NCBI GenBank assembly: GCA_052437175.1
Contig: JBQVOK010000008.1
Span: forward strand, 95,506-159,505
Length of the DNA stretch: 64,000 bases
Direction of reading: 5' to 3'
Origin: Flavobacteriales bacterium
Lineage (GTDB): Bacteria > Bacteroidota > Bacteroidia > CAIKAF01
Positions 37,392 to 41,614 of the stretch are shown here, piece after piece. The position numbers were made by a program, and so were the translations under genes. Position 1 is the stretch's first letter. Every line of letters starts with the position of its first letter. The notes under the pieces were generated by a model. That model searched no databases. It was not told the origin of the DNA and worked only from the letters and a program-made list of their open reading frames with translations.

Positions 37392-38876
37392 CTACCCGTT
37401 CAGGTAAATTTCCGTAAGTTGTTTTTTATCCGCCTTGCCGTTCTGGTTCAGGGGAATACGTTCGATAATACGTATGTCCGAAGGGATCATGTACACCGGC
37501 AGGGTCTGCGCCAGGGCCTCCCCGATCTGCCGCAGCAGTTCCCTTTCCGTTTCCTGCGTGCCGGGCTTCAGTTCTACCAGGCTCACGATCTTTTTTACCT
37601 CGCCGTTGCGTTGCAGGGCAATGGTCTCGGCCTGTCCCACGAAAGCGAGGCGATTGATCTGGGACGTGATCTCGTTGAGTTCGATGCGGTACCCGTGCAG
37701 TTTCACCTGGTCGTCCGAACGGCCGCTGCAAAACAGCATATCGTCTTGAAAATACCCTTTATCGCCCGTACGGAAAGCCCTTTCGCCATCCAGCGGCACA
37801 AATTTCTGCGCATTCAGATCCGGTCGGTTCAGGTAGCCTACCGACACGTTCTTACCCACGATAACGATCTCCCCGTCTTCGATCAGCAGGCGGCTCTCCG
37901 GCTTGGGATAACCCACCGGCAGGGGATTGTATTTTTCTAAAACAGCTTCGTCGATACGCACCAGTGTGGTGGCTACCGTAGCTTCGGTTGGTCCGTAGGT
38001 ATTGTACACCGCCGCTTCGGGGAATGCCTTGCACAAGGCGGCGGCCAGGGGATGCGGCAGCACTTCGCCACAGAACAGGAAGAAACGCAGCGAGGACACT
38101 TTTTCTTCGGCCCCGATGCGCGAATAAATAAAGGCAAAGGACGGCGTGGACACCCATACCGTGCCGCCATGTTTTTGTATACGTTCGAGGAAAAGTTCAG
38201 GGTTTTCGGTGGTAGATCGGTCGTTCAGCAGCAGGGTGGCGCCCAGGGCCCCGAAGGTCATCAGTTCATACACAGAAAGGTCGAAGCTGAAAATGGCCAC
38301 ATTCACGAACACATCCCGGTCCGAAAATCCGAAATCCGTGCTCATCCAGCGGATAAAGGACTGAACGGCCTCTGTACTGATCTGTACGCCTTTGGGTTCG
38401 CCCGTACTGCCGGACGTAAAAATGAGGTATACCAGCGGATCGCCTTCGCGCAGGGGTAGTCTGGGCCCGCGCTCTGCTTCCTGTGTAACCTGTATATGGC
38501 CGCGGGAAAGCGCTATTTCGGTAGTGCCCGCGAGCGAAAGTGCATTCTGTGTACAGTTGAGCACCGTATCGGCGCCTGATATCTGCTGTACGGCAAGGAT
38601 ACGTTCGGGCGGGTAAATGATATCCACGGGAATATAGGGTACCTGCATTTTCATACAGGCGTACACGGCCACGATCATATCGCTCTGCTTGTGCCCGTAG
38701 ATCATCAGCGGGCGACCGGTAGCATCCAGGTCCTGCTGTGCAAAAAAGCGGCAGAGTTCATTCACCCGCGTTTCAAACTCCAGCCAGCTGAGCGTTTCTT
38801 CTTCCGAGATCAGGGCAGCCTTACCCGGATTGATCTGCTGTTCCGTAAAATCCTTTAATTCGAATGAAAATCTCAT
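37392..38876 (-). CDS. Adenylate-forming carrier-protein ligase (DltA-like D-alanine/acyl carrier protein ligase)
   Basis: 494 aa single adenylation domain; YLIFTSGSTGEPKGV core motif; GDKGYF and C-terminal NGKADKKQL; last gene of a dlt-like operon. Confidence 0.8.
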   Translation of the reverse strand: MRFSFELKDFTEQQINPGKAALISEEETLSWLEFETRVNELCRFFAQQDLDATGRPLMIYGHKQSDMIVAVYACMKMQVPYIPVDIIYPPERILAVQQISGADTVLNCTQNALSLAGTTEIALSRGHIQVTQEAERGPRLPLREGDPLVYLIFTSGSTGEPKGVQISTEAVQSFIRWMSTDFGFSDRDVFVNVAIFSFDLSVYELMTFGALGATLLLNDRSTTENPELFLERIQKHGGTVWVSTPSFAFIYSRIGAEEKVSSLRFFLFCGEVLPHPLAAALCKAFPEAAVYNTYGPTEATVATTLVRIDEAVLEKYNPLPVGYPKPESRLLIEDGEIVIVGKNVSVGYLNRPDLNAQKFVPLDGERAFRTGDKGYFQDDMLFCSGRSDDQVKLHGYRIELNEITSQINRLAFVGQAETIALQRNGEVKKIVSLVELKPGTQETERELLRQIGEALAQTLPVYMIPSDIRIIERIPLNQNGKADKKQLTEIYLNG

Positions 38877-40066
38877 ATCTTAATTAATTCTCCGCTGAAA
38901 ATGTAAATGGCAAAAGCCACGGCATTAAACAGTATAAAGATCGAAATATATTTTACCGCCGTAGCGGGCAGTTTACCGAAAAATACATCGCGCCCGTTTT
39001 TCTTGCAGAGGTACGTATAGTAATTGTGAATAACGGAATACAGGCCGAACAACATACCGCTCATGATATAATGCACACGAAACCCGTTCCAGAAACCCAT
39101 GAGCGTAAATGTGAAAAAAAGGGCCAGGTTCTGGCGCTGTATGGGTTTGAACATTTTTTTGGTGGTCAGCTCCTTGAACACCGGCTTAAAGAAGTAGTCG
39201 TTGAGCCAGTCGCCCAGGGTCTTGTGCCAGCGCTGCCAGAATTCCTTTGGGTTTATGGACGTAAAAGGACGATTGAAGTTATAGGGCACACGGATACCGA
39301 TCATGTGGCCGAAGCCCATGGCCAGCAGCGAATACCCTGCAAAATCGAAGAAAAGATAAAAGAGGTAGGTATACATGTATGCTGCGTGGAACAGCAGGCT
39401 GCCGTCGTTCACGAGCCGCAGCAGCAGGGCCTGGTTAATGATCTCTGCAATGATGAATTTATAGAGCAGTCCGCGTACAAAATAATCGAGCCCTTCCAGG
39501 AAAACGGGCATGCTTATGCCGGCGTACCCTTTTTGCACATCTGTGTCAAATCTCTGCAAGCGATCGATGGGGCCGATCAATAAAGTAGGCACGAATGTCG
39601 TAAAATTAAAAAAGCGCAGCGGGGATACGGTTCCCGGTGCGTCTTTTTCATCGATATACAGCTGCACTACGCGGAACGTGATGTACGAAAGTCCGGCTAC
39701 CTGCCACAACAGGGCCATAACTCCCTGCAATCCCTTCCCGTCCTCTGCGGCAGGCAGTACATTGGTCAGCTTCATCAGCACCAGGGGCAATACCAGCAGC
39801 AGCACGGGCAGCAGTAAGCCCTGTACCTTTAATTTACGGCCCAGGAAATAGTATATACCATAGGAATAGGCCAGCAGTGCCAGCAGTTGCAGTGGTTTGG
39901 GAAAAAGCACGAACAGGTAAAAGGCCGAACTGAAGGCCAGCAGCCAGCGGTAAGGAATCCATTTTGCCGGGAGAGCCTTTGCCAGCAGGAACAGCAGGAT
40001 CACCGCCGCCATATAGGTAAAGAACGGCAGGGACGTAAAAGGCAATATGTCGCTGAACGTAAACAT
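38873..40066 (-). CDS. MBOAT-family membrane O-acyltransferase (DltB/AlgI-like)
   Basis: 397 aa polytopic; MBOAT histidine region FWQRWHKTLGDWLNDYFFKP; ATGA overlap with the ligase gene. Confidence 0.85.
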   Translation of the reverse strand: MFTFSDILPFTSLPFFTYMAAVILLFLLAKALPAKWIPYRWLLAFSSAFYLFVLFPKPLQLLALLAYSYGIYYFLGRKLKVQGLLLPVLLLVLPLVLMKLTNVLPAAEDGKGLQGVMALLWQVAGLSYITFRVVQLYIDEKDAPGTVSPLRFFNFTTFVPTLLIGPIDRLQRFDTDVQKGYAGISMPVFLEGLDYFVRGLLYKFIIAEIINQALLLRLVNDGSLLFHAAYMYTYLFYLFFDFAGYSLLAMGFGHMIGIRVPYNFNRPFTSINPKEFWQRWHKTLGDWLNDYFFKPVFKELTTKKMFKPIQRQNLALFFTFTLMGFWNGFRVHYIMSGMLFGLYSVIHNYYTYLCKKNGRDVFFGKLPATAVKYISIFILFNAVAFAIYIFSGELIKI

Positions 40067-40215: not shown

Positions 40216-41396
40216 GGATAGCTTGTTTTTAAGAAACGGCTGATCTTGAGCCAGCCGTAATCGCCCAGGTGCATGATATCGCGCAGGGTGCCGGGTTCGT
40301 AGTCTTTTTTGTCGCTTACGAACATATTAAAGCAGGGATAGCCTTTGCTGCGGATGCGTTCTTCGAGCAGGGCAATGATCTCGTTGTATTTTTCAAGGTC
40401 GTGGTAGTAATAGGGATTCAGGGGTTGTATCACAAAACTGGCGCGGACATTACGGCTTTCGAGCAGGTTCAGCAGCAGCATAAAATCGGCCAGTTCCCGG
40501 TTGGTAGCCGGCGGGTCCGGCTCAATGGCCTTCGCCTTGCGCGGAACACCCTGCTCATCCAGCAGGTATTTGCTGTAGTACGCGTTGCCCACATACAGTT
40601 CATTATTCGTAACAGCGTGTACAAAGGTGTCCTGCAGTTGTTTGAGGCGTTTGTCCCAATCGATATGGATCTCCGGCCTTGACGGAATATCCGCCGTTTT
40701 CACCTCGTACTTTACCCCCTGCAATGTGCTTCCCCAGGATTCCACAAAAGAATGATAGAGCGGAATATGGCGGCTGCGGTACAGGGCACTAAAATAACTG
40801 AGCGTAGGCCCGGGGTCCTCTATCTCGCTGCGGTGCTCGTATACAAAGCGGGCTACTTCCATGCGGGCTTCTGGCTGCAACCGCGGGTTGGTGGCAATGG
40901 AACGCAGAAAGGCCGGACGTACGAACTCCAGGAAAGCCTGGGTATGGGTGCCCTGGGTATCGAACCAGCCCGGACTGATGACAAAACAGATGCGTGAGCT
41001 GTCGAGGAACTCTTCCATGGCCAGCAGTTCGCAATACATGCTGAAGGACTGGTGATAGGCATGTCCGTAACCTATGGCAGGCATATTGAGACTGTCCGAC
41101 AGAAAAAAGTAAGAAGAATAGCGGTCGCTGCCGAGCTCCGAAGAACCCATGATGGTGAGCACCCGTGGGTTTTTAAGGGCTGCGGCCAGTTCCAGCTCAT
41201 CCTGCGGGCCGGCCACACAATTGGAAAAATTACCCCGCACGCGCTGCTGGGTACCCGAAATGATCTCATCCTGCACAGGGCTGCCGCAGCTGCGTACATA
41301 CAGCGTGAACAGGGCCATAAAAAGCCCCGTGACACATACACCTATACAGAGAGGAAGCAGGTGAAACCGGAACAGATCACCTATGTGTTTTTTCAT
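40212..41396 (-). CDS. DltD-like membrane-anchored SGNH-type protein
   Basis: 394 aa, N-terminal TM anchor (LLPLCIGVCVTGLFMALFTLYV), periplasmic domain with a GSSELGS motif; position between the carrier protein and MBOAT matches dlt operon organisation. Confidence 0.55.
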   Translation of the reverse strand: MKKHIGDLFRFHLLPLCIGVCVTGLFMALFTLYVRSCGSPVQDEIISGTQQRVRGNFSNCVAGPQDELELAAALKNPRVLTIMGSSELGSDRYSSYFFLSDSLNMPAIGYGHAYHQSFSMYCELLAMEEFLDSSRICFVISPGWFDTQGTHTQAFLEFVRPAFLRSIATNPRLQPEARMEVARFVYEHRSEIEDPGPTLSYFSALYRSRHIPLYHSFVESWGSTLQGVKYEVKTADIPSRPEIHIDWDKRLKQLQDTFVHAVTNNELYVGNAYYSKYLLDEQGVPRKAKAIEPDPPATNRELADFMLLLNLLESRNVRASFVIQPLNPYYYHDLEKYNEIIALLEERIRSKGYPCFNMFVSDKKDYEPGTLRDIMHLGDYGWLKISRFLKTSYP

Positions 41397-41614
41397 TTTT
41401 TAGCGGCGATGTATTGCGTAATAAGCTCCACCGTTTCAAAATGTTCCACCGTGATCTCGTTGAACGGCACCTTGATACCGTATTCATTTTCGATCTCCAC
41501 GGCCAGCTCCACGATGGTGATGGAATCGAGTATCCTCGACGACCAGAGGGGATCGTTCTTTCCCACCTTTGCAAATGCGATCTCGTGGATCTTGCTGATC
41601 AGAAATTCTTCCAT
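41393..41614 (-). CDS. Acyl/D-alanyl carrier protein
   Basis: 73 aa; phosphopantetheine attachment motif LDSITIVELAVEIE (DS[IL] serine). Confidence 0.8.
   Translation of the reverse strand: MEEFLISKIHEIAFAKVGKNDPLWSSRILDSITIVELAVEIENEYGIKVPFNEITVEHFETVELITQYIAAKK

Follow-up and report, generated by a model that had tools for sequence, protein, structure and literature searches.

D-alanylation by dlt genes is known from the Firmicutes (dltXABCD of S. thermophilus, S. aureus and B. subtilis; structures 6BUG, 8JEM, 3DHV and 3BMA) and has also been reported from Gram-negative hosts. The dra locus of Bordetella is reported, where PMC9410548 and PMC4448142 cite Taneja et al. 2013, to add D-alanine (D-Ala) to an unidentified outer-membrane component. 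In Dickeya dadantii the genes dltBAC and dltD(pbpG) contribute to polymyxin resistance, and a dltB mutant suffered 99% mortality in polymyxin (PMC3544676). Here we describe a five-gene dlt-like operon at positions 37392-41614 of a 64,000-nucleotide stretch of DNA, called the window below, from a Flavobacteriales bacterium (GenBank assembly GCA_052437175.1, contig JBQVOK010000008.1, positions 95,506 to 159,505 of the forward strand). Every sequence-level test applied places this operon in a separate Gram-negative, dra-type Dlt lineage together with Bordetella pertussis dra and Dickeya dadantii dlt, as the Bacteroidota member of a lineage known experimentally from Bordetella and Dickeya. We put at roughly three in four the probability that it is a complete, self-contained D-alanylation module of that lineage.

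Vibrio cholerae AlmEFG resembles the window operon in that a DltA-like ligase and a DltC-like carrier supply an amino acid to a Gram-negative envelope, with polymyxin resistance as the outcome, but AlmG is a cytoplasmic-face lipid A acyltransferase and not a membrane-bound O-acyltransferase (MBOAT), DltD and DltX have no counterpart, and glycine is transferred to lipid A. The acetylation systems PatA/PatB and AlgI/AlgJ/AlgX (PMC12148441), which also belong to Gram-negative envelopes, share with the window the succession of an MBOAT, an FxYxxF tyrosine and a periplasmic SGNH-type serine enzyme. They differ in their acetyl-CoA donor, in having neither carrier nor ligase, in the fusion of the motif to the MBOAT C-terminus and in keeping the catalytic histidine, whereas in the window the motif stands on a separate microprotein and the donor would be a carrier-protein thioester.

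Organization of the operon

The operon consists of five successive minus-strand open reading frames (ORFs) in the transcript order C-D-X-B-A. These encode a DltC-like carrier of 73 aa (41393..41614), a DltD-like transferase of 394 aa (40212..41396), a DltX-like microprotein of 49 aa (40066..40215), a DltB-like MBOAT of 397 aa (38873..40066) and a DltA-like carrier-protein ligase of 494 aa (37392..38876). A preliminary inspection of the window from its letters and ORFs (the sequence-only reading) had described five coupled genes with ATGA or TGATG overlaps at each junction, and the ORF listing and the sequence bear this out. ATGA overlaps of 4 nt join the carrier and DltD-like genes (aaaaATGAaaaa), the DltD-like and microprotein genes (tccATGAaaa) and the MBOAT and ligase genes (gatATGAgat), while the microprotein and MBOAT genes meet in a TGATG overlap of 1 nt (ttcTGATGttt).

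In the source metagenome-assembled genome (MAG) the products carry the NCBI names acyl carrier protein (ACP), DltD, hypothetical protein, MBOAT family O-acyltransferase and AMP-binding protein, in operon order. The comparisons described below confirm that each of the five Dlt components has a homologue here, and the genes would therefore make up a complete five-gene machine. The window also codes for three cargo proteins of the type IX secretion system (T9SS) and for one protein with a TonB C-terminal domain, and the operon proteins are 100% identical to entries of a 'Flavobacteriales bacterium' MAG. On these grounds the assignment of the host to the Gram-negative Bacteroidota is considered secure.

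The DltB-like MBOAT

The MBOAT gives a Pfam match to MBOAT (3.3e-15), and among solved structures it matches only DltB (6BUG/8JEM; phmmer 1.3e-43, residues 9-394). Its AlphaFold model (pLDDT, predicted local distance difference test score, of 76.6) finds its best fold match in DltB 6BUG, with template modelling (TM) scores of 0.78/0.75, followed by HHAT and PORCN at about 0.6. As in DltB, no shuttle motif is fused to the C-terminus. The description of this protein as DltB-like in the sequence-only reading is upheld by both sequence and fold.

What that reading missed is the absence of the canonical catalytic histidine. In the phmmer alignment GFWNG of the window MBOAT corresponds to GFWHG of S. 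thermophilus DltB (St-DltB), with His336 replaced by Asn327 (codon 39088-39086). Two further St-DltB residues, Tyr345 and His349, are replaced by Ser336 and Phe340, and His289 is retained as His281. The MBOAT histidine has been called "universally conserved ... in all MBOAT proteins" and is required in DltB and PatA (PMC12148441). The key active-site residues of DltB are given as His336, His289 and Tyr345, and other MBOATs have an Asn/Asp...His pair at the two corresponding positions (PMC11035591). Misalignment as the source of Asn327 was considered and rejected, the flanking L-M-G-F-W-x-G being aligned at high posterior and the column being clean in an alignment of 151 sequences. In the AlphaFold model Asn327 lies at a helix end, like the His336 position.

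Asn occupies the His336 position in every member of the lineage examined. All 120 closest database homologues of the window MBOAT carry WNG, and of the best 150 representatives from 1.84 billion proteins, nearly all of the first 26 or so have WNG, while WHG prevails further down. DltB of B. pertussis and DltB of D. dadantii 3937 are both WNG. The Asn-type MBOAT is marked by the signature His281, Gln312, Asn313, Asn327, Ser336, Phe340, Ser344, Asn348 (H-Q-N-N-S-F-S-N), which the window shares in full with Achromobacter, B. hinzii and Aliarcobacter; Gln312, Asn313, Ser344, Asn348 and Tyr388 (window numbering) are near-invariant and specific to the Asn clade. Apart from His281, no histidine is conserved in at least 85% of the Asn clade. 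His332 was considered as a compensating histidine near Asn327 and rejected, as it is Asn, Tyr or Gln in homologues.

The Asn lineage lacks two of the three named active-site residues and is nevertheless functional, because a Dickeya dltB mutant has a phenotype and Bordetella dra incorporates D-Ala. Acylation of the tyrosine must then use a re-wired centre, in which the retained His281 would most plausibly serve as the base. The simplest reading, offered as a hypothesis, is that the chemistry would be performed by His281 alone or by a His281/Asn327 pair with inverted roles. In the searchable literature (dlt in Bacteroidetes, DltB with Bordetella, H336), whose coverage does not extend to key primary Bordetella/dlt papers, neither the Asn replacement nor a Bacteroidota dlt system is mentioned, and the loss of the canonical MBOAT histidine throughout the lineage seems to be new to the literature.

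Phylogenetic position and gene order

The window operon was compared with 80 related genome loci, 31 of them Asn-type and 49 His-type, among which gene order and the Asn or His residue of the MBOAT correlate without exception. The 31 Asn-type loci come from Bacteroidota, one Chlorobiota MAG, Aliarcobacter, Achromobacter and Bordetella. B is always followed by A, D and X precede B where the contig extends upstream (D in 29 loci), and all have W-N-G. A carrier gene was detected in first position in 21 of these loci, in 17 by tblastn and in 4 more by ORF scan. The 49 loci with A-B order, all W-H-G, belong to Firmicutes plus Udaeobacter and a Chloroflexia MAG. The sequence-only reading had rightly pointed out that the order carrier-DltD-X-DltB-DltA differs from dltXABCD.

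The C-D-X-B-A/WNG loci and the X-A-B-C-D/WHG loci form two separate groups in the trees of DltA, DltB and DltD, with 60/60 neighbour-joining (NJ) bootstraps for each tree. With AlgI/PatA-like outgroups, 96/100 NJ bootstraps recover the Asn DltB clade, to which B. pertussis and Dickeya belong, as monophyletic. Since DltA, DltD and DltB recover the same Asn/His bipartition, the whole module has diverged as one unit. The five-gene module is also self-contained as judged from its surroundings, because in Fluviicola the same five genes lie between unrelated neighbours and a search through the flanks of 33 Asn-type loci turned up no accessory gene conserved across taxa, the operon genes being the only ones to recur.

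The likeness to Bordetella dra that the sequence-only reading had suggested is closer than was noted there. The window operon falls into the same lineage as Bordetella pertussis dra and its Achromobacter/Bordetella homologues in the DltA, DltB and DltD trees, and it shares with the Bordetella/Achromobacter loci the D-X-B-A order, the MBOAT signature, the ligase pocket DLYCAVAT and a DltX-like peptide with a matching C-terminus (FVYQQF in the window, FQYQQF there), along with a Gram-negative host. It differs in phylum (Bacteroidota vs Betaproteobacteria), in a protein identity of only 29-42% and in its carrier gene, which is adjacent and first here and was not found beside the Alcaligenaceae loci. 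The Dickeya dadantii system (PMC3544676) likewise has an Asn-type MBOAT of the same clade (GAWNG...SG..F in strain 3937) in a Gram-negative host; its genes are arranged as dltBAC with dltD as a separate entry, and the host is an enterobacterium.

His-type Dlt loci (WHG, A-B order) were also seen outside the Firmicutes, namely in Candidatus Udaeobacter, a diderm verrucomicrobial host (L057, L066), and in a Chloroflexia MAG (L076). Because Candidatus Udaeobacter carries His-type loci, the Asn type is not the sole Dlt form in diderms. One protein labelled 'MAG: Bacillota bacterium' (P0365) is an Asn-type DltB (GTWNG) that groups with the proteobacterial branch; it could stem from a diderm Firmicute, from horizontal transfer or from a binning error. 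In the cluster of Dickeya Asn-type DltB (P0382 and members) many RefSeq entries are named 'cytochrome c552', which appears to be an annotation error spread across the genus.

The carrier, the DltD-like protein and the DltX-like microprotein

The carrier gives a Pfam match to PP-binding (4.5e-06) and matches the NCBIfam DltC models at 2.8e-08 and 4e-05, both under the cut-off. Its phosphopantetheine-attachment residue is Ser31 (codon 41524-41522) in LDSITIVE, the DSI site named in the sequence-only reading, and it aligns with a serine that is invariant in 34 carriers from related loci. The Ile directly after this serine ('+1 Ile') was found to be specific to the Asn-type lineage.

The 394-aa protein, described beforehand as DltD-like and membrane-anchored, proved to match DltD over its full length (Pfam DltD, 5e-43, residues 72-387), and among solved structures in the PDB it matches only DltD (1.7e-08). 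A hydrophobic N-terminal anchor is read from the sequence at about residues 13-34. The catalytic residues are present as a GSSE motif (Ser85/Ser86) and Asp373-x-x-His376, and GSSE, Asp and His recur in nearly every one of the 74 DltD sequences compared from the two lineages.

The 49-aa peptide, which the sequence-only reading had listed as part of the operon, has a basic N-terminus, one hydrophobic helix and the C-terminal hexapeptide FVYQQF; neither Pfam nor NCBIfam gives a match. Each of the 80 loci was searched for a short ORF that stops close to where the MBOAT gene begins (in Firmicutes, close to dltA), and almost all of them have a microprotein whose last six residues read F/Y-x-Y-x-x-F. 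In 29/31 Asn-type C-D-X-B-A loci an ORF of 41-73 aa with terminal F-x-Y-x-x-F lies directly upstream of the MBOAT gene. In the other two, one contig begins at the MBOAT gene and at one locus the scan found nothing. The 49-aa ORF is not a chance ORF, because an equivalent lies at the same place in these 29 loci. The C-termini read FVYQQF in Bacteroidota, FQYQQF in Achromobacter and Bordetella, FVYEEF in Aliarcobacter and FIYNEF or YIYTEF in Firmicutes, and F44, Y46 and F49 are invariant across 16 Asn-type peptides. Profile-profile comparison with Firmicute DltX peptides (hhalign; probability 93.3%, E 2.8e-07) identifies the 49-aa peptide as a DltX homologue, with Tyr46 (codon 40080-40078) as the predicted acyl acceptor. 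The hexapeptide is known as the "acyl shuttle" motif, in which the invariant tyrosine takes D-Ala from DltB and hands it to the catalytic serine of DltD (PMC12148441). DltX seems not to have been reported from these Gram-negative operons until now.

The DltA-like ligase and its cargo

The ligase gives a Pfam match to AMP-binding (2.4e-54). Its best NCBIfam family is DltA NF003417 (9.7e-130), with 433 bits vs a cut-off of 476, followed by a second DltA model, TIGR01734 (2.5e-127). Models of generic amino-acid adenylation reach 288 bits, and those of fatty-acyl, aryl and CoA ligases no more than 115 bits. This comparison of families favours DltA and agrees with the earlier description of a standalone DltA-like enzyme. 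The best single-domain solved relatives are DltA structures (2.2e-95); gramicidin synthase reaches a higher total, but as a sum of two domains.

In a residue-level alignment Asp197, Cys269 and Val301 of B. cereus DltA (3DHV) and the catalytic lysine are all kept. The pocket of the window ligase is made up of Asp199, Leu200, Tyr203, Cys269, Ala299, Val301, Ala302 and Thr303, with Lys481 as the catalytic lysine. Bordetella hinzii, six Achromobacter species and Aliarcobacter have exactly the same eight-residue signature, DLYCAVAT. The Firmicute signature is DLMCAVAV or a close variant, from which the window pocket differs at two of eight positions (Met201 -> Tyr, Val303 -> Thr). Cys269 was reportedly implicated in the selection of the D-enantiomer by DltA by Du et al. 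in 2008; a literature search for DltA pocket residues (Cys269 and others) found no paper. Since the pocket residues for D-Ala are kept and the signature is identical to that of Bordetella, whose dra adds D-alanine, D-alanine is the likely cargo of the ligase.

A sister subclade of Bacteroidota Asn-type loci (L011-L018, L020, L023), hosted by Bacteroidia, Sphingobacteriaceae and Flavobacteriaceae MAGs, has mostly DVCMA[IV]VT instead of DLYCAVAT, two loci departing from this pattern at one position. The changes include Cys269 -> Met (Leu in one locus) and Leu198 -> Val, and these systems may load another amino acid.

Proposed pathway and acceptor

By homology with the Firmicute pathway the following route can be proposed, the D-Ala cargo, the order of transfer and the phenotype included. 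The DltA-like ligase would convert cytoplasmic D-Ala and ATP to D-Ala-AMP and transfer the D-alanine, bound as a thioester, to the phosphopantetheine arm that the carrier bears at Ser31. Once loaded, the carrier would dock from the cytoplasmic side onto the DltB-like MBOAT, an inner-membrane protein, and the D-alanyl group would pass through the MBOAT to Tyr46 in the periplasm-facing FVYQQF of the DltX-like microprotein. From Tyr46 it would move to the GSSE serine of the periplasmic, inner-membrane-anchored DltD-like enzyme (Ser/Asp373/His376), which would attach it by an ester bond to an envelope molecule accessible from the periplasm. The surface would be expected to become less negative and the cell to be protected from cationic peptides.

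Lipopolysaccharide (LPS), capsule or a lipid as the acceptor is speculation. The window holds an ABC-transporter-dependent (Wzm/Wzt-type, O-antigen-like) polysaccharide cluster on the plus strand at 9790-19631, with same-strand ORFs continuing to about 24300. It comprises Wzm, Wzt with a Wzt_C domain, an FkbM methyltransferase, an AT3 acyltransferase, a hexapeptide transferase and several glycosyltransferases of the families GT2 and GT4. Lying 13 kb from the operon, this cluster could be a candidate source of the acceptor; in other genomes it is not linked to the operon.

Weighing of the explanations

The sequence-only reading had spoken of the Firmicute D-alanylation machinery. This holds in so far as all five components are homologous and share the FxYxxF of DltX, the Ser/Asp/His of DltD, the serine of DltC, Asp197/Cys269/Val301 of DltA and the fold of DltB. 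Strict membership fails on the equivalog cut-offs, on gene order (C-D-X-B-A vs X-A-B-C-D) and on the catalytic His, the MBOAT having His336 -> Asn, Tyr345 -> Ser and His349 -> Phe, and the operon belongs to a separate lineage in all three trees. The dlt-like reading itself stands, as the ligase does not group with aryl or fatty-acid adenylases and the 394-aa protein is a DltD.

Several points weigh against a complete D-alanylation module. The NCBIfam equivalog cut-offs are missed for DltA (425.5 vs 559.85), for DltB (TIGR04091, 5.8e-76, 256.2 bits vs 375), for DltC (33.7 vs 68) and for DltD (TIGR04092, 2.4e-33, 116 bits vs 150). In the NCBIfam ranking Dlt models nevertheless come first for the ligase, the MBOAT and the DltD-like protein. 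With the invariant MBOAT His and the active-site Tyr345 absent, the DltB step cannot be assumed to be identical, and with Met201 -> Tyr in the pocket, relative to Firmicute DltA, the specificity for D-Ala would lean on the analogy with Bordetella. No carrier gene was found by tblastn and by ORF/motif scan beside D-X-B-A in two Alcaligenaceae loci, one from Achromobacter (L026) and one from Bordetella hinzii (L050), where the gene may lie elsewhere or have diverged too far to be recognised. The host has an outer membrane, unlike the Firmicutes, and to our knowledge no teichoic acid, and the sequence points to no particular acceptor. The Bacteroidota systems, that of the window among them, are known from their genes alone.

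The same machinery might carry another small amino acid, such as glycine, L-alanine or D-serine, to the envelope. The two altered pocket positions, the missed DltA cut-off and the sister subclade with DVCMA[IV]VT, by which the pocket is seen to evolve within the lineage, all leave room for this. We nevertheless regard it as unlikely, given that Asp197, Cys269 and Val301 are kept, among them the residue said to select the D-enantiomer, and that Bordetella hinzii has the identical pocket, dra of Bordetella being reported to incorporate D-alanine in the sources named at the outset. There is a still smaller chance that the Asn-type MBOAT is only a conduit or scaffold and the chemistry takes place elsewhere, by direct transfer from the thioester to DltD or by self-acylation of DltX. 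Such a role would fit the presence of Asn, in all members, in place of the catalytic-base His of DltB and PatA and of Ser in place of Tyr345 (PMC12148441, PMC11035591). It fits poorly with the strong conservation of His281, W326, G328, N263 and the FDFAGYS block in the active-site region, with the tyrosine motif retained by DltX and with the strong phenotype of the Dickeya dltB knockout. The replacements themselves (Asn327, Ser336, Gln312, Asn313, Ser344, Asn348) are near-invariant, which argues for a selected catalytic centre and not for decay.

Quite improbable is a lipid or NRPS-like (nonribosomal peptide synthetase) tailoring set for a secondary metabolite in place of an envelope modification system. 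Such clusters commonly contain a standalone adenylating enzyme paired with a carrier, the ligase has significant matches among NRPS adenylation domains, and the top NCBIfam matches of the carrier are non-Dlt ACPs, although every one lies far under its cut-off. Against this, no condensation, thioesterase, ketosynthase (KS) or other NRPS or polyketide synthase (PKS) gene is found in the operon or conserved beside it, DltA is the best single-domain match of the ligase, and the operon has homologues of DltD, DltX and DltB, which serve only to carry an acyl group through the membrane to an acceptor outside the cytoplasm and which have diverged together with the ligase.

The D-alanylation module of the dra-type lineage is thus preferred to these alternatives. 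A broader proposal goes beyond it and is put forward tentatively, with a chance a little short of even. In this proposal the diderm Dlt systems would form an ancient, unrecognised sister lineage whose MBOAT works without the universal His. Its catalytic pair would be inverted, with His at helix-HC and Asn at transmembrane helix 7 (TMH7), the reverse of the eukaryotic MBOAT Asn/Asp...His, together with Tyr345 -> Ser and His349 -> Phe, and its acceptor would be an anionic molecule of the outer-membrane world (O-polysaccharide, LPS core or lipoprotein).

Operon boundaries and other genes of the window

Hairpins follow the stop codon of the ligase gene at 37339..37380 (minus strand, ACCCGTCTCGCTGTAGCGGGACGGGT), in the convergent gap with atpC. 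They include a terminator-like site at 37354-37339, followed by TATTTTATTG, and likely mark the predicted end of the transcript. On the other side an intergenic region of 98 nt (41615..41712 in the ORF map) separates the carrier gene from the divergent der (EngA) and presumably contains the operon promoter. A scan with the sigma-70 consensus, which does not cover Bacteroidota promoters, found nothing above shuffled sequences. The base composition of the operon is indistinguishable from that of the surrounding window sequence.

A gene for a T4-type RNA ligase 1 (PF09511, 3.6e-19) is directly followed by one for a polynucleotide kinase/phosphatase (AAA_33 and HAD_PNKP, 5e-50) at 32634-34559 on the plus strand, and the pair looks like the RNA-repair pair used against tRNA-cleaving toxins. 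The T9SS sorting domain (Por_Secre_tail) occurs on three large proteins, encoded at 6205-9684 (minus strand), 49420-51732 (plus strand) and 52230-57335 (minus strand); in the 1701-aa T9SS protein no further Pfam domain was found. At 44874-48394 the minus strand has a run of four genes, for a 4HBT thioesterase, an ABC-2 permease, an ABC ATPase and a BtrH_N/DUF4872 protein. This run showed no link with the dlt-like operon.

Significance

The operon itself will be no surprise to a specialist acquainted with dra. Current annotation overlooks the system, only DltD being named as such in the source MAG and the DltX-like gene being called 'hypothetical'. The acceptor of dlt-type systems in Gram-negatives was still unidentified in a Bordetella paper of 2022 and still to be identified for Dickeya in 2013 (PMC3544676). 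Inhibitors of DltB such as m-AMSA bind between His336, His289 and Tyr345 and may miss the Gram-negative type. The lineage-wide Asn at a "universally conserved" His position amounts to a natural experiment on MBOAT catalysis. That free-living Flavobacteriales, Bacteroidia, Chlorobiota and Aliarcobacter carry this lineage too shows it to be a general function of the diderm envelope and no pathogen oddity recently taken from Firmicutes, and the question of the acceptor is thereby widened to environmental diderms.

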